Below, piece after piece: positions 4,293 to 61,320 of a DNA stretch of 64,000 nucleotides; the first letter of the stretch is position 1; every line of letters starts with the position of its first letter. The DNA is from Chiloscyllium plagiosum (lineage: Eukaryota): positions 15,793,677 through 15,857,676 of the forward strand of contig NC_057751.1 in NCBI RefSeq assembly GCF_004010195.1, in the 5' to 3' direction. Position numbers and translations under genes: made by a program. The notes under the pieces were generated by a model. It saw nothing but the letters and a program-made list of their open reading frames with translations, searched no databases and was not told the DNA's origin.

Positions 4293-4446
4293 TTAAAAAT
4301 CACACAACACCAGGTTATAGTCCAATAGGTTTAATTGGAAGCACTAGCTTTCAGAGTGCTTCCAATGAAACCTGTTGGACTATAATCTGGTGTTGTGTGA
4401 TTTTTATCTTTGTGCACCCCAGTCCAACACCGGCACCTCCAAATCA
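4293..4446. mobile_element. Penelope-derived fold-back element (family B) with TSD
   Basis: Inverted copies of the tail seen at 61048-61146; CATAAAATCAGAC repeated at 4280-4292 and 4445-4457. Confidence 0.85.
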
Positions 4447-6944: not shown

Positions 6945-7215
6945 CCACACCACCCTGTGGCCGACCACTTCAACTCCCCTCCTCCCACTCTGCCAAGGGC
7001 ATGCGAGTCCTGGGCCTCCTCCATCGCCAAATCCTAGCCACCCAACGCCAGGAGGAAGAACGTCTCACCTTCCGCGCTGGGACCCTCCAATCACACGGTA
7101 TCAATGTCGACTTCACTATTCTCCTGTTCCTTCGATACTGCCTGACCCTGCTGTACTTTTCCAGTGCCATACTTTTCGACTCTGATCTCCAGCATCTGCA
7201 GTCCTCACTTTCTCC
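6945..7215 (+). mobile_element. Penelope-like fragment: GIY-YIG C-terminus joined to the family-A tail
   Basis: HPVADHFNSP / MRVLGLLHRQILATQRQEEERLTFRAGTLQSHGINVDFT, then ATTCTCCTGTTCC...CAGTCCTCACTTTCTCC. Confidence 0.8.
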
Positions 7216-17123: not shown

Positions 17124-17342
17124 TCAAGGAGAAAGTGAGGGCTGCAGATGCTGGAGATCAGAGCTGAAAATGTGTTGCTGGAAAAGCGCAGCAGGTCAGG
17201 CAGCATCCAAGGAACAGGAGAATCGACGTTTCGGTCATAAGCCCTTCTTCAGGAATGAGGAAGGGCTTATGCCCGAAACGTCGATTCTCCTGCTCCTTGG
17301 ATGCTGCCTGACCTGCTGCGCTTTTCCAGCAACACATTTTCA
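17124..17342. mobile_element. Penelope-derived fold-back element (family A) with TSD, inserted in a CR1 fragment
   Basis: 83-bp inverted arms 17165-17247 and 17260-17342 (2 mismatches); direct repeat TCACCCCTCAACCT at 17110-17123 and 17340-17353; hammerhead core at 17225-17252 (-). Confidence 0.85.
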
Positions 17343-22969: not shown

Positions 22970-23143
22970 GAGAAAGTGAGGATTGCAGATGCTGGGGATC
23001 AGAGCTTAAAAATGTGTTGCTGGAAAAGTGCAGCAGGTCAGGCAGCATCAAAGGAGAAGGAGAATCGACGTTTCGGGCATAAGCCCTTCTTCCTGGACTT
23101 ATGCCCAAAACGTCGATTCTCCTTCTCCTTTGATGCTGCCTGA
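22970..23143. mobile_element. Penelope-derived fold-back element (family A) with TSD
   Basis: Inverted arms of the family-A tail; direct repeat TGATCTTGTAATG at 22957-22969 and 23141-23153. Confidence 0.85.
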
Positions 23144-36682: not shown

Positions 36683-36880
36683 GGTGTGGTGCTGGAAAAG
36701 CGCAGCAGGTCAGGCAGCATCTGAGGAGCAGGAGAATCGACGTTTCGGGCATAAGCACTTCATCAGGAATGCTGAAACGTGGACTCTCCTGCTCCTCGGA
36801 TGCTGCCTGACCTGCTGTGCTTTTCCAGCACCACACTCTCCACTCTGATCTCCACCATCTGCAATCCTCACTTTTTTCCC
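36683..36880. mobile_element. Penelope-derived fold-back element (family A)
   Basis: Inverted arms at about 36685-36746 and 36774-36836 around a hammerhead core. Confidence 0.8.
36739..36766 (-). ncRNA. Hammerhead ribozyme core (family A)
   Basis: CTGATGA-A-GTGC-TTAT-GCCC-GAAAC-GTC; one stem II mismatch. Confidence 0.6.
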
Positions 36881-38348
36881 TGCTTGGTTAGCATGTTAAT
36901 TTTACACCCCCTAACTTTTACAGCCTCTCCCCTTTATCACCTTCCCGACTTCTAACCTATCAAACCCCTCTGTAGTTTTAAAGACCTCTATTTATTCCTC
37001 ACATCCGAATCTAAACTACTTTGACCCATCTTGGTTCCTCTTGAGTTTGATGCCCATCTCCGATTAAGAAGACTTTCTCTCAGGTTGAAAGTTTTTAACT
37101 GACCTCCTGCCTCGAAGGAATTTTGGAGAGCAGTTCCAGATTTCAATTCTGTCCTCACGCCTGAAGAGCCTGGCTCTAACATTAAGGTTTTGCTCCCTTG
37201 GTCTGGACTCCAGAGCAAACAGGTTCTCTCCCTCTGCAGCCTCTCAAATCCATCATACACCTTGAATCTCCGCAGAATAGACAGGAGCAGGAGCATGCTA
37301 TGGGGCCTGTCTATCTGCCATCCAACATGATCGCACCTTTCCATTTTCCTGTCTGCCCCCATTTCCCCTTCTCTTCAGTGGTACCCAAAAATCTGTCCAA
37401 CTCAGCTGTGAATACATTCAATGACCTAGCCACCACTGTTCCCTGGGGAAAAGAGATATCCAAAGACAGCAAATTCATCCTCACCTCCATCTCAATGACC
37501 CTAGAAAAGCCCTCTCAGAATATTTAATGTTTCAATAAGATCATACACCTCATCGCTCTAAATGCAAATTTGCATTTGACAAAAATTCCTATACAGGGTG
37601 AGGACATCACCTTGTTGTCCTTGAGATGGTGTAGCAAGCTGCCTTCTCGAACCGCGACAGTCCACATGTTGTAGGGAGACCCTCAATACCCTTTGGGAGG
37701 GAAATCCAGGATTGCGACCCAGTGATGCTGAAGGAATGGCCAATATACTTCCAACTTGGAACGGCGAGTGACTCAGAGGGGAACCTGCAGAGATTGGGGT
37801 CCCCATCTATCTGCTGCCCTTGTCCTTCCAGATGGTCGAGATCATGGGTTTGGAAGTTGTCATCTTAGGAAATTTGGTGAGTTGCCACAGTGCATCATGT
37901 GGATGGTACACACTGCTGCTGCTGAGCGTTGGTGATGGAGGAAGTGGGTGTTTGTGGACGCGATCTTGCACCGCCCCACCTGCGCCCCCAACCTTTCTTC
38001 AATACTGTTTACAGAGGTTTACTTATATTAAAAAACCTTAGCCACCTATAAAGGACCATACACGTTTCTCTGAAGGGAGATAACTTTTAAGTGCAGCCAT
38101 TACATAACGACACGCACTCTTGTGGGTCCAAATTGAGAGATGGAAGAGAGTGCAAGATTGATGCTCCCTTGCAGTGCATGTAACAACTTGCTCAACCTTC
38201 CCTCACATTAATCAACCCCTTAATCTTCAAGCCAAGACAGTGAAACTTGTCCTTAGAATTTAAATCCTCTTAGCCTCACATAGTCATAAGTCTCCCTCTG
38301 ACACTATGGAGCGTTTACATTGCCCAGAATGAAGGTAACATTACATAC

Positions 38349-38379: not shown

Positions 38380-39044
38380 CTGTAAGGGATGATAATGTAC
38401 AATTTAAAGAAACTCTTCCTAAATCATGAAGTAAGTTTTTACTCAGCTATCTCGCGACTTCCACTTAGAGGAGACTGTAGCATTACCCAGGTAGCTCCTT
38501 GGTCTGGCAATTTATTTATTAAAATAGTAATAGAGAGGGACAAAACTGGTCCACACATTCAAGTCCTAATTTGGGGCAAGGTGAATTGTGATGGAATTAG
38601 ACAGGAGCGTGCAGGGGTTGATTGGAGCAGTTTGTTTGCAGGCAACAGGACCTCCAGCAAGTGGGAGACCTTTAAAAGTGAGATGGCTCGAGTTCAAGGT
38701 CTATGTGTTCCTGTGAGGTTGGCAGAAATTGGGAACCCTGGTTGACAAGACATGTTTTGACCAGAAAAAAGGAGGCGTGGATCAGGGACAGGCAGCTGGG
38801 ATCAAGGGAATCCCTGGAGTTAAACAGGGAATACAGGAGTTTACTAAAGAAGGAAATCAAGAGGACGTAAGGGGGGCACAAGAAAGCATTGGCTGAGAAG
38901 ATTAGGGTGAATCCAAAGAGGCACTTTAAGTATATTAAAGGAAAAAGAATAACTAGAGAGAGAACAGGACCCCTCAAGGACCAAAGGGGACGTGTGTGCT
39001 TAGAACTGCAAGAGATGGTTGTGAGGTTTTCAAGGAATATTTGT

Positions 39045-39347
39045 TCAAAGTTTGTGAGAAGATTTGTAGCTCAAGTGCTCGTTGTTGTGGTTCTGTTCGC
39101 CGAGCTGGGAATTTGTGTTGCAGACGTTTCCTCCCCTGTCAAGGTGACATCCTCGGTGCTTGGGAGCCTCCTGCAAAGGACAGCTGGAACTGACAACCGG
39201 AAGCGGCAGATTCAAACCACTACAAATGCCGGAGGAAACATCACAGAAGCGCTTCACAGGAGGCTCCCAAGCACTGAGGATGTCACCCAGACAGGGGACG
39301 AAATGTCTGCAATACAAATTCCCAGCTCGGCGAACAGAACCACAACA
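39045..39347. mobile_element. Fold-back element (family C) with hammerhead motifs and TSD, inserted in CR1 ORF2
   Basis: 91-bp inverted arms 39083-39173 and 39257-39347; AGGAATATTTGT repeated at 39033-39044 and 39347-39358. Confidence 0.85.
39271..39310 (+). ncRNA. Hammerhead ribozyme motif (family C)
   Basis: GCA-CTGAGGA-T-GTC...GAC-GAAA-TGTC-TGC; stem I GCA/TGC and stem II GTC/GAC pair. The sister copy in the opposite arm keeps GAAACGTC. Confidence 0.65.
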
Positions 39348-40792
39348 GGAATATTTGTCCTCTGTGTTTATCATGGAGAAAGACATGGGAATTTGGGGAA
39401 GTTAGTGGTGACATATTGGGGACACTCCATGTCACATTGGAGGTGGTGTTGGATGTATTAGAATGTACAAAGGTGGATACATATCCTGGTCCTGCAAGAG
39501 GCGAGAGAAGAAACTGCAGGGACCCTTGCTGATATTTTTGCATCATCGTTAGCCATGGGTATAGTCCCAGAAAACTGGAAGGTAATTAATGTTGTACTAT
39601 TATTCAAGAAGCGCTGCAAATAAAAGCCTGGGAACTACATACCAGTAAGCTAACCTGGTCGGTAAATTACTTGAGATGATTCTGAGAGATAAGATGCACA
39701 TGCATTTGGAAAGACAGAGTTTGATTAGGATTAGTCAGCATGGCTTTGCGCGTGGGAGATCATGCCTCACAAATTTGTTATGAATTGTTTGATGAGGTGG
39801 CCAGGAAGGTTGATGAGGGGAGGGCAGGGCAGTAGACGTAGACTATATGGATTTCAGTAAGGTCTTTGATAAGGTTCCATATGGTAGGCTGCTGTGGAAG
39901 GTTACATCACATTGAATCCAAGGGGAGCTGGAAAATTGGATACACAGTTGACTTGATGGGATTGTAATAGTGGAAGGACGCTTGTCAGACTGGAGGCTTG
40001 TGACTCGTGGAGTGGTGCTGGACCCATTACTGTTTGTTATCTATATCAATGTTTGAGAATGTACAAGGCAGTGATTAGTAAGTTTGCTGATGACACTCAA
40101 ATAGGTGGTATCGTGGACAGTGAGGAAGTTTATCAGAAACTGCAGCAAGCCCTTGATCAGCTGGGGAAGTGGGCCGAGAAATGGCAAATGGCATTTAATA
40201 CAGATAAGCGTGAGGTCTTGCAGTTTGGAAAGTCAAATCAAGGCTGGAGTTTCATGGTGAAAGGTAGGGTCTTAACGAATCTAGTGGAACAGAAGGTCCT
40301 TGGAGTTCAGGTGCACGGTTCTCTGAAAGTGGAGTCCCAGGTAGACAGGGCAGTGAAGAAGGCTTTTAGCACACTGGCCCTCATCAGTCAGGGCACAGAG
40401 TATAGACGTTGGGAAGTTATCTTGCAATTAGACAGGATGTTGGTGAGGCCGCACTTGGAGTATTGTATTCAGTGTTGGTCACCTTGCTACAGGAAGGATG
40501 TTAATCAACTGAAAAGAGTGCAGAAGAAATTTACAAGGATGTTGCCTGGACTCCAAGGTCTGAATTATAGGGAGAGGTTGGACAATTAGGACTTTTTTGT
40601 TTAGAGTGTAGGAGACTGAGGGGAAGGGGGAATCTTATAGAGGTGTATAAGAACATGGGAAGCATGGCTAGGGTGAACGCACTCAGTCTTTTTCCCAGGG
40701 TTGGAGAATCGAGGACTAGAGGACATCAGTTTAAGGTTAGAGGGGAGAGAATAAAAGGGAACCTGAGGGGCAACATTTTTACACAGAGGGTT

Positions 40793-46089: not shown

Positions 46090-47194
46090 ATAAGGCACAA
46101 GTCAGGAGTGTGATGGAATACTTCCCACATTTCCAGGTAAGTGCAGCTCCAACAACACTCAAGAGGCTTGAGACCATCCAGGACAAAAGCAGCCTGTTTG
46201 ATTTGCACCACATTCACAAACATCTCTCTCTCCACTACTGATACGCAGCAGCAGCAATGTGTACCACCCAGAAGATGTACTGCAGCAATGTACCTAGGCT
46301 CCTTTGAAAGCACCTTCTAAAACAACAGTTTCTATCTCAAAGGATAAGGACAGCAGGTACATGGGGCACCGCCACCTACAAATTCCCCTCCACGCCACTC
46401 ATCATCCTGACTGGGAAATAGAGCAACATTCCTTCACTGGCATTGGGTCAAAATCCTGGGAACTCCCTCCTTAATGGCACTGTGGGTGCACCCCCACCGC
46501 ACGGACTGCAGTAGTTCAAGAAGGCAACTCACCAGCACATTCCTAAGGGTGGATAATAAATGCTGGCCGTCCAGCAATGCCCGCATTCCATGAGTTTACA
46601 AGATTACTGATAAGGCCCAGGGAGTAATATGAATTCCAACGTGTACACTGACTGGGGAAGTAATCCAATGTGGTCAAGTAATCCACGACCTCCAGGGTTG
46701 CTCGAGAAATATTGATATTATTTTCATGAGCACGGATAAAAGCTGGAAATGCGGGAGCCAGGTTTACACCTAGCCGGACTCTGCTATTTGTGAACAAGTG
46801 GAGCTGGAACAGACAAGCCAAGCCTTGGAGAGTCAACTTCCCGTCAAAACCAGATAGGCCTGGTCCTACCTGATGAGGTGCTAACGGCCACACTGTTTCA
46901 GAATGAATCATTCTTTCCACCTCCAATCAACCTGCTTTGTTAGATTCATGTTACCCAGACTTGTGGCACCCACCTCAGTAGGCAAAAACGCGACAAGGAA
47001 CAGCTGAAGGTTCAAAACCATGTTCTGTGACCTCAAGGTACTGAAATTAATCACCTCATTGGATCTTCCTGCCCCCGCCTGATTGGACAGTATTGGACAC
47101 AAGCCACAGAATTGCCGAGAAGGTGTGAAGAGGTGTGAAGAGGACAATCTGGAGATCCACTTTGCTCTGCTTTGACACCCTCAAGACCGTTGGG

Positions 47195-47391
47195 CAGAAG
47201 TGGGTACTGCAGATGCTGGAAATCAGAGTCGAGATTAGAGTGGCGCTGGAATAGCACAGCAGGTCAGGCAGCAACCGAGAAGAAGGAAAATCAATGCTTC
47301 GGGCAAAGGCTTTTGCCCGAAGCGTTGATTTTCCTGCTCCTTGGGTGCGGCCTGACCTGCTGTGCTTTTCCAGCACCACTCTAATCTCGAC
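47195..47391. mobile_element. Penelope-derived fold-back element (family A)
   Basis: Palindrome centred on the stem-II sequence (CTTCGGGCAAAGGCTTTTGCCCGAAG); ACCCTCAAGAC repeated at 47177-47187 and 47390-47400. Confidence 0.8.
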
Positions 47392-55483: not shown

Positions 55484-55508
55484 CATCCAGGTTTGGCCTG
55501 ATGAGTAG

Positions 55509-55701
55509 GAGAAAGTGAGAACGACAGATGCTGGAGATCAAAGTTGAGAAAGTGGTGCGAGAAAAGCACTGCGGGACATCCGAGGAGCAGGAGAATTGAT
55601 GTTTCATTCCCGGTGAAGGGCTTATGGCTGAAACATCGATTCTCCTGGCCCTCGGATGCTGCCTGACCTGCTGTTGTTTTCCAGCACCACACTCTCGATT
55701 C
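55509..55701. mobile_element. Penelope-derived fold-back element (family A), diverged, inserted in a LINE
   Basis: Inverted arms; 16-bp imperfect direct repeat at 55493-55508 and 55702-55717 (2 mismatches). Confidence 0.75.
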
Positions 55702-59568: not shown

Positions 59569-60234
59569 AAAGCCATGCCCCCACCTCCGCTGCATTCCCT
59601 CTGCCCATTACAATATATTTCATTACTCGGACCACAGCGAGAATTTTGCAAGCACGCTTATCCAAGGGAAGGTAGACTGACATTACAGGCAGTCCAGAGA
59701 AGGTTCATTAGGCAAACCTGGGAATGGAGGAGAGGTTGAGCAGGTTGGACTTGTACTCGTTGGAGTTTAGAGGAACAAGGCAACCCTATCGAAATATTTA
59801 AAATTCTTAGGGGACTTGACAAGATAGATACGGAGAAGTTGTTTCTCACTGTGGGAGGCAACGACCAGGAGGGTAATCTCAGAGTAAGGTTTGCCCATTT
59901 AAAACAGAGAATTCTTTACCTCAGAGGACTGGGGGATTAAGCATATTCAAAGGTGAGATGGCCAGATCTTTATGCAGAAAGGGAATCGAGGGTAAAGGAC
60001 TGTAAAATGGAGGGAAGGATTATCAGCCATGACGTCATTGAATAGTGGAGCAGACTCGGTTGGCCAACATCTGCTCCGACCTCTTCTGGTCTACAGAGCT
60101 CACGTGGCTCTCACATGCCTCGCGCATATCTCCCCATGTACTAACATATCTCCCCCTGTGCATCTCAGTCAGTTTTCCTTCACCCTCTCGTCCTGCCCTC
60201 CTCTGCCTGTTCTATCTCCCTCCCTGTCACCTCC

Positions 60235-61146
60235 CTACCACCATTACGCGCGGGGACACCTCCCACCTTGTACATGGCAGGTACTCATGTGACTCAGCCA
60301 ATGTTATCTATCTTATACGTTGCAGGCAAGGATGCCCGGAGGCATGGTACACTGGGGAAACCGAGCAAAGGTTACGACAATGGATGAATAGGCACCGCAC
60401 AACAATCAACAGACAGGAGGGTTCCCTCCCAGTTGGGGAACACTTCAGTGGTCCAGGACATTCAGCCTCGGACCTTCGGGTGACCATCCTCCAAGGTGGG
60501 CTTCGGGACAGGCAGCAGAGGCAAGTGGCCGAGCAGAGGCTGATAGCTAAGTTCGGTCCCGTAGGGAGGGCCTCAACCGGGACCTTGGGTTCATGTCACA
60601 TTACAGGTGATCACCATTGCACTATATACACACACAGATATTCCTACACACACACACACTCTCACATACACACGGACACAGATACACACAGACGCGCACA
60701 CAGACACCCACACACACCCTTATAGACACACAGACTCCCACACACGCACCCCCTCACAGACTTAAGACACTCTGCACTCACTACNNNNNNNNNNNNNNNN
60801 NNNNNNNNNNNNNNNNNNNNNNNNNNNNNNNNNNNNNNNNNNNNNNNNNNNNNNNNNNNNNNNNNNNNNNNNNNNNNNNNNNNNNNNNNNNNNNNNNNNN
60901 NNNNNNNNNNNNNNNNNNNNNNNNNNNNNNNNNNNNNNNNNNNNNNNNNNNNNNNNNNNNNNNNNNNNNNNNNNNNNNNNNNNNNNNNNNNNNNNNNNNN
61001 NNNNNNNNNNNNNNNNNNNNNNNNNNNNNNNNNNNNNNNNNNNNNNNAAAGCTAGTGTGCTTCCAATTAAACCTGTTGGACTATAACCTGGTGTTGTGTG
61101 ATTTTTAACTTTGTACACCCCAGTCCAACACCGGCATCTCCAAATC
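60235..61146 (+). mobile_element. Penelope-like element 3' part (GIY-YIG endonuclease, CA-rich tract, gap, family-B tail)
   Basis: YSCDSANVIYLIRCRQGCPEAWYTGETEQRLRQWMNRHRTTI...PVGEHFSGPGHSASDLRVTILQGG...AEQRLIAKFG; tail AAAGCTAGTGTGCTTCCAATTAAACC after the 263-N gap. Confidence 0.85.
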
Positions 61147-61320
61147 CTGTCACCAAGGTCACTCTTGCCCATCCTGAGCAAGGCTCCAACTGGGCCGTGT
61201 CAGGCTGATCACCTCTAAACTGCAACTCTAACTGGAGATTGTTGCTCCTGATGCATGAGCATTTTTCTGTGACTGTGTGTAAGGTGCCTAGGTTGACCCA
61301 GGGAGTGCTTTTCCACTTGC

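Follow-up and report, generated by a model that had tools for sequence, protein, structure and literature searches.

A fold-back insertion with two minimal hammerhead motifs in Chiloscyllium plagiosum and its probable origin from a Penelope-like element

Results

A 302-bp fold-back insert interrupts a decayed CR1 element

We analyzed a 64,000-nucleotide stretch of Chiloscyllium plagiosum contig NC_057751.1 (the window; positions count from its first letter), in which a 302-bp insert at 39045-39346 is flanked on both sides by an exact copy of AGGAATATTTGT (Table 1). The 12-bp target site duplication (TSD) described in an earlier note on this DNA was thus recovered letter for letter, with a chance expectation of about 7e-6 when ±5 nt are allowed at each end. 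The same note had placed the insertion in ORF2 of a CR1 element, and our reading, made at the protein level (a global nucleotide alignment to the other CR1 copy was uninformative), agrees: the flanks translate as CEVFKEYL on the left and EYLSSVF on the right, the host reads CEVFKEYLSSVF with the duplicated bases counted once, and a second CR1 copy in the window, which both flanks match at 59-62%, has GEVLNKYFAAVF uninterrupted at the corresponding place. Among 15 of the 102 joints in the aligned contigs there was no exact empty-site read; junction-spanning contigs in runs X1 and X3 reach fewer than 31 letters into the insert, and the presence of the insertion in those runs is not claimed.

The inverted arms (39083-39173 and 39257-39347) measure 91 bp with 6 mismatches, the length given before, and both arm sequences previously quoted agree with the DNA; an automated inverted-repeat call lengthens the arms to 96 nt at 92%. 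The insert is asymmetric: its left arm reaches 38-39 nt further outward, and its right arm begins 83-86 nt further upstream (39171/74-39256) than the left, so that no symmetric terminal inverted repeats (TIRs) abut the TSD, the left arm overshooting by 38-39 nt. No palindrome lies at the inner junction, where we infer a 3-nt microhomology (CTG). A blastn comparison of the insert with the window returned no second copy, and also no match at E<10 to family A, the other fold-back family from which the arms had been said to differ.

Table 1. Positions of the insert, its parts and related fold-backs in the window
Feature	Position	Strand	Details and basis
Decayed CR1 LINE ORF2, host of insert	38600-40720 (limits approximate)	+	protein-level reading, flank matches
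TSD, left copy	39033-39044	+	12 bp, CR1 sequence; exact repeat
Left arm	39045-39173	-	129 nt, almost certainly an inverted, 5'-truncated pLTR piece; begins 17 nt ahead of hammerhead core; 38/44 aa to P0010
Tail, left arm only	39045-39083	-	38-39-nt 3' extension; family ends pile at 39044 and 39082/39083
Left-arm hammerhead motif	39120-39159	-	damaged by U4C, C11.1G and a loop change; palindrome ACGU kept
Inversion junction	39171-39173	.	CTG assignable to either arm; LQRT reading and read loose ends
Right arm	39171-39346	+	about 175 nt, almost certainly a 5'-truncated pLTR piece, without tail; two coding frames
Right-arm hammerhead motif	39271-39310	+	minimal type I; core intact; palindrome ACGU changed to AUGU
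Right-arm stem I	39271-39273/39308-39310	+	
Right-arm CTGAGGA	39274-39280	+	extra U at 39281
Right-arm stem II	39282-39299	+	GAAA at 39300-39303
Right-arm predicted cut	after 39307	+	
TSD, right copy	39347-39358	+	12 bp; exact repeat
Six family A fold-backs	2780-2985, 17124-17339, 22970-23140, 36685-36885, 47190-47390, 55508-55700		blast

The arms encode both ends of a reverse transcriptase-endonuclease protein

One frame of the right arm (39174-39287, ending in LHRRLPSTEDVT) corresponds to an ORF C-terminus and matches the last 38 residues of P0003 with 32 of 38 identical; a second frame, from 39226, corresponds to an ORF N-terminus and matches the first 40 residues of P0010 (37/40). The left arm, read through its tail, matches the same N-terminus, and the tail codes for residues up to about 53. 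The matching proteins are annotated in Chiloscyllium punctatum. P0003 consists of a YVDD reverse transcriptase (RT), then VYKIPC..C..HYIG, read by eye as a GIY-YIG-type endonuclease (EN) motif, and finally the frame found in the arm, an order shown on database proteins and not on the DNA of the insert locus. Pfam RVT_1 scored P0003 at E 3e-6 (27.4 bits, just under the cut-off of 29.6 bits), Pfam called no GIY-YIG family on the parent protein, and PDB returned no relative of P0003. Loose ends of aligned sequences upstream of the right arm entered the endonuclease tail coding sequence (IDLDPIYRP) in 4/4 runs. A parent with RT plus GIY-YIG upstream of the arms, for which the earlier note had advised a search, is therefore documented both by the P0003 match and by these ends.

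Since a single repeat that holds an ORF end and an ORF start is the pseudo-LTR (pLTR) of a Penelope-like element (PLE), the arms are almost certainly pLTR ends of an RT-bearing PLE. The features of EN+ PLEs are present: an RT followed by a C-terminal GIY-YIG, a pLTR overlapping the ORF end and the first codons, a tail of 38-39 nt at one end (such elements have an optional one of 30-40 nt), an inverted 5'-truncated copy and a 12-bp TSD. Neptune and Nematis PLEs have a Cys-rich zinc-finger-like linker between RT and EN (PMC8557442). By eye, the RT-EN linkers of P0003, P0001, P0006 and P0007 contain no such motif, so the parent likely belongs, on sequence grounds, to the Penelope/Poseidon type.

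Metagenome and viral contigs scanned for exact DNA patterns gave 0 matches, and a protein scan of viral contigs confirmed 0 of 82 candidates. We also observed that the final ~100 residues of P0002, annotated as 5'-nucleotidase domain-containing protein 1 isoform X3, belong to the endonuclease tail of this PLE, a chimera that is either exonisation or an annotation artefact.

Reads from other copies restore the motif

Contigs from three organisms, together with a raw RNA run, were aligned to 38960-39440. Summed depth was about 1e6 on the arms, as against tens at the left junction flank; the parent PLE is a high-copy element. Long, diverse, AT-rich loose ends piled up at 39044 (92 and 87 contigs in X3 and X14, respectively) and at 39082/83 (87, 80 and 88-89 contigs in X1, X3 and X14, respectively), which indicates that across the family 3' ends occur at two sites separated by 38-39 nt.

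The family majority was T at 39288 in 96, 85 and 98% of the depth in the three organisms; the corresponding values were 97, 91 and 99% at 39141, 91, 87 and 74% at 39131, and 91, 64 and 93% for C at 39313. At 39304, C made up 73, 17 and 62% on the right arm alone, the deeper left arm having no variant row there, and for T at 39275 the right arm had no variant row. One arm or the other thus carries the majority base at every one of the 6 mismatches, and the majority restores the motif at all six, as the two-arm consensus of the earlier note had anticipated. This majority retains the CTGAGGA/GAAACGTC core, whose loss the earlier note had named as a refutation of its reading, with an extra U after A9, G10.1-C11.1 as G-C and the ACGU palindrome at 15.2-16.2. 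Variation of the motif within the family, in 40 of 95 variant rows, falls on the free position N7, on C17 (U in 9-42% of the family depth on the right arm) and on CpG sites, and these rows hold no compensatory pair change.

Of the 457 RNA reads aligned, 442 did so only partly; the reads come from other copies, and their strand bias of about 5:1 was consistent between both arms. C17U occurred in 41/106 RNA reads, and changes at 39315, 39319 and 39321 had similar shares; C17U and these changes (39307-39321) may mark a subfamily whose cleavage triplet is GUU. Among the related families described below, U17 is likewise the most frequent state (14/24). An RNA-end pile at the cut site was absent from this one run, a single-cell polyA library unsuited to show one. 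In one contig joint the direct arm begins at 39308, immediately past the predicted cut. Among other fold-back copies, 6 of 15 joints inspected, in three organisms, have 39178/79 as their entry point into the direct arm, where the direct arm of the insert begins as well; 39171-39179 may be a hot spot of truncation or the start of a transcript, in part a reference artefact.

The motif is a hammerhead architecture that covaries across PLE families

The catalytic core (CUGANGA, GAAA, UH) is intact in the right arm and in the family majority, and not in the left arm (U4C); the G10.1-C11.1 pair is lost in the left arm and the ACGU palindrome in the right. Stem I had been proposed as GCA/TGC and stands as such; stem II likely extends beyond GTC/GAC to about 6 bp with a bulge or an A.G mismatch. 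A full minimal-hammerhead descriptor had 2 matches in the window, the right arm of the insert and one family A copy, and 0 matches in 300 dinucleotide shuffles. Rfam hammerhead models gave no match at the gathering threshold or at E<=10; the sole Rfam match on the insert was a miRNA hairpin model (E 0.005, far below threshold). An in-frame ATG of the right arm (39280-82) overlaps the beginning of stem II; an ATG built in this way from A9, the extra base and G10.1 is seen in 3 of 24 families (the L004 and L014 families and window 39280).

The earlier note had read the mutual repair of the two arms as covariation, an argument that fails because both arms descend from one sequence and their differences are decay; nor do two families, the insert and family A, provide a statistic, which a test over 24 families does. 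From an alignment of 20 related proteins we took the best 80 of 503 confirmed loci in metagenome contigs, and tested the 57 (partly redundant) with at least 150 nt beyond the expected EN end over a span of -100 to +600 nt. A sense motif was present in 24/57 loci, 60-515 nt past the expected EN end, and 33/57 had no descriptor match; an antisense motif was found in 0/57 in the same downstream span (0.035 in shuffles). The 9 antisense matches were all upstream, and 3/3 of those checked were inverted copies. Since the descriptor itself demands stems and is circular for pairing, the pairing test was repeated with a core-only selection, which gave 46 matches in 22 families, or 24 with the right arm of the insert and family A, some of these matches probably being chance.

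Positions I.1, I.2 and I.3 pair in 20, 24 and 16 of the 24 families, II.1-II.4 in 18, 18, 17 and 17, and the palindromic stem III (III.2) in 19, in C-G, A-U, G-C, U-A and U-G forms, against a permutation expectation of 9-12 of 24 (the permutation ignores relatedness). Several pair types per column are present. Over the same 24 families there is no pairing excess at I.4, at II.5 or in the register without the extra base. Stems I, II and palindromic stem III thus covary over 24 PLE families. We agree with the earlier note that the architecture of the motif is that of a genuine hammerhead and no product of chance; it belongs to the published minimal type I class of PLEs. Among the loci, L015:1089-3803 forms a palindrome of 2.7 kb, near-perfect at 98%, in which two PLE halves bearing identical hammerheads stand head to head, either a long form of the head-to-head layout or an assembly artefact.

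The copy in the insert is likely inactive

Architecture alone is no proof of ribozyme activity. Folding of the motif was no better than that of shuffles (z -0.94), nor was that of the tail hairpin (z -0.26), and in the two-arm majority sequence stems I and II form at a probability of only about 0.5. Co-folding of two motif copies gave a minimum-energy structure other than the dimeric hammerhead. For a transcript of the whole insert the predicted fold is a hairpin of -198 kcal/mol in which each motif pairs with its own complement. Given this predicted burial, the damage to core and pair on the left and the loss of the palindrome on the right, the ribozyme is likely dead in the insert.

In published work PLE motifs show weak cleavage as dimers (PMC4209133; PMC6765202), and the hammerhead of the anole Poseidon, located at the ORF start, cleaves only with protein (PMC11167929). 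In the parent RNA the hammerhead would be a passenger of the pLTR, and its activity would require a dimer formed through the ACGU palindrome and probably help from protein. A different reading, which we regard as doubtful though worth keeping in view, is that the motif has hammerhead ancestry and is, in this family, now kept mainly by its overlap with coding sequence and by a role as a structure that binds protein or makes the RT pause, cleavage in vivo being slight or absent. The motif does overlap, in two reading frames, the region of the ORF stop and the start of the ORF, the share of U at C17 fits the idea, and in the anole system insertion in vitro does not need cleavage and the cut site shows no RNA-seq ends (PMC11167929). 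Coding would not by itself, however, account for the conservation of core and palindrome across families with unrelated stems, and the distance of the motif from the EN end varies from 60 to 515 nt. This reading is compatible with the account of insert formation by two-strand priming given below.

Element 3' ends at both junctions of the insert

Both outer junctions of the insert are 3' ends of the element, one at each RT start site, and AT-rich flanks are found at the 3' ends of the family. The tail limits correspond to two RT start sites mapped on sense RNA, and the anole Poseidon protein, a predicted dimer, cuts and extends both strands (PMC11167929). With majority bases, the proximal start site lies in an AC-rich loop with about 8 closing pairs (the native fold is not significant). 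The left tail is absent on the right and the 83-86 upstream nucleotides are absent on the left, so neither arm was templated from the other. Exactly one tail is present in 7/7 fold-backs (the insert and six of family A), a result with a probability of 0.008 if the ends chose their sites independently. That each arm has sequence the other lacks, together with the single tail in all seven, favors two-strand priming.

The insert was therefore probably made in one event, in which both cut target strands primed reverse transcription on element RNA. The GIY-YIG endonuclease would make a 12-nt staggered cut with one 3'-OH per strand; one 3'-OH would prime at the distal start site and yield the left arm with its tail, stopping after 129 nt, the other would prime at the proximal site and yield the right arm of about 175 nt, and the two truncated cDNA ends would be joined through the 3-nt microhomology. 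In 3 of the 6 family A fold-backs one arm begins exactly at GAAAC, and of 15 joints inspected for the family of the insert (102 in all), 8 leave the inverted arm at the same place, 39116-39130; this suggests that the RT stalls on uncleaved RNA where stem II has its foot.

More tentatively, as something that may well not be the case, we propose twin priming, in which a dimeric RT-endonuclease primes both strands on one RNA, at each end of the tail hairpin. The distal cDNA would then displace the proximal one, so that both copy the same upstream sequence. If true, twin priming would account for the head-to-head repeat, the one-tail rule and the non-nested arms barred to snap-back, and the frequent arm stop at GAAA would represent RT stalling at a folded, uncleaved stem II in vivo. 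In a literature search that included work on GIY-YIG tails since 2023, with subscription papers outside its scope, no title or abstract opening stated twin priming for PLEs.

Self-priming is the chief alternative: the inverted arm of a PLE would arise by snap-back, possibly on an antisense template, and the endonuclease would resolve the hairpin and leave a one-sided tail. Arkhipova and colleagues argued for self-priming from palindromes at inverted junctions (PMC3846280), the tail has been attributed to EN-mediated resolution (PMC8557442), snap-back also expects one tail per insertion, and among the six family A fold-backs three have nested arms and one has a palindromic centre. The junction of the insert has no palindrome, however, both tail limits were mapped as RT start sites on sense RNA (PMC11167929), and a cDNA anchored at the tail-less site cannot template a tail that it never copied, which is the layout of the insert and of two family A copies; we consider snap-back unlikely for the insert. 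Still less probable is amplification, as one unit, of a non-autonomous master element or of a master PLE's inverted 5' end, with the fold-back as one of the copies. Joints running from 39124-39130 to 39178/79 (6 of 15 inspected, in three organisms, some at a depth of 200-350) indicate that some junctions recur; yet the insert's own junction differs from these, junction positions and inserted letters vary, the window contains the insert only once, and because the reference ends near 39178, recurrence at that point is in part artefactual. Inverted arms and a TSD would also fit a MITE derived from a DNA transposon with a chance hammerhead-like string in its TIRs; this parentage, which the earlier note had named as a refutation of its reading, has next to no probability, as the arms are asymmetric by 38-39 nt, the hammerhead descriptor has no match in shuffles, and the arms encode both ends of an RT-EN protein and in reads run on into it, a coding continuity by which the MITE is ruled out.

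Family A and further PLE ends

Family A fold-backs carry a tail of about 36 nt on exactly one arm in 6/6, and TSDs of 14, 13 and 11 bp were found for three of them. Two are non-nested, as is the insert, three are nested and one is ambiguous (n = 6); the three nested ones fit simple snap-back equally well. One arm begins exactly at GAAAC in 3/6, and a seventh family A site tested had no second arm. At 7060-7215 a family A 3' end with its hammerhead deleted is joined, in the same orientation, to LTFRAGTLQSHGINVDFT, which resembles the coding sequence for a GIY-YIG domain's C-terminal end; this junction suggests that family A belongs to another PLE lineage, possibly a Neptune-like one. At 60042-61150 a GIY-YIG remnant (about 60290-60530, 31% to P0013) is followed by an assembly gap and, beyond it, by an end that starts AAAGCTA and is likely a hammerhead 3' half with an AGCU palindrome. 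A fold-back of the AAAGCTA end, with one arm about 38 nt longer, is found at 4293-4445, and the two sites represent a further PLE family.

Discussion

Minimal hammerheads (min-HHRs) in metazoan PLE pLTRs, including fish Poseidon, Xena and Neptune elements, were described by Cervera and De la Pena (2014, PMC4209133). The insert resembles them in its CUGANGA/GAAA/UH core, in the extra base between 9 and 10.1, in the G10.1-C11.1 pair, in a long helix II with no helix III beyond a palindromic 4-mer, and in pairs of motifs on opposite strands, 100-700 bp apart in that account (PMC4209133). It differs in that its family has its own stems and a helix I of 3 bp instead of 4-5; the available portion of that account does not name sharks (PMC4209133). 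We found no description of this PLE family in the available portions of shark-directed literature, and the figure supplements of PMC11167929 and PMC4209133 may already contain the head-to-head product or shark motifs.

Poseidon of Anolis carolinensis (PAc; Frangieh et al. 2024, PMC11167929) likewise has its proximal start site in an AC-rich loop. Counted from the ATG, the ends lie at +67 and +106 here, as opposed to about +111-118 and beyond in PAc, a comparison that depends on which ATG is the real ORF start, since P0010 begins at one 18 codons earlier. The available text of PMC11167929 does not derive the head-to-head product. The inverted pLTR units of EN+ PLEs (Arkhipova et al. 2013, PMC3846280; Craig et al. 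2021, PMC8557442) share with the insert the head-to-head 5'-truncated copy, the tail at one end only, the pLTR with the first ORF codons and a TSD round the whole unit, which is 8-10 bp there and 12 bp here. Unlike those units, the insert has two halves that are both stumps (129 and about 175 nt) without an ORF body, and it thereby mimics a MITE.

Non-LTR retrozymes (bioRxiv 10.64898/2026.07.22.740005; PMC7229834) are, as the insert is, non-autonomous, hammerhead-bearing and PLE-related. They are tandem direct repeats, whereas the two motifs of the insert are on opposite strands and so cannot both be sense in one RNA. We rejected a non-LTR retrozyme reading, as there are no tandem same-strand hammerhead repeats and the insert is a single copy in the window.

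The insert is a new family of minimal PLE hammerheads, in a class and an insertion layout that are already published. On the ribozyme side it adds one family to a class described in 2014, which is little gain. As a record of PLE integration it is clean, both junctions being 3' ends at known RT start sites and each arm holding sequence that rules it out as a copy of the other. Fold-back stumps of this kind are easily misannotated as MITEs or pre-miRNAs, as the sub-threshold miRNA match in Rfam illustrates. The shark genome is rich in such stumps, and counting them could separate two-strand priming from snap-back.
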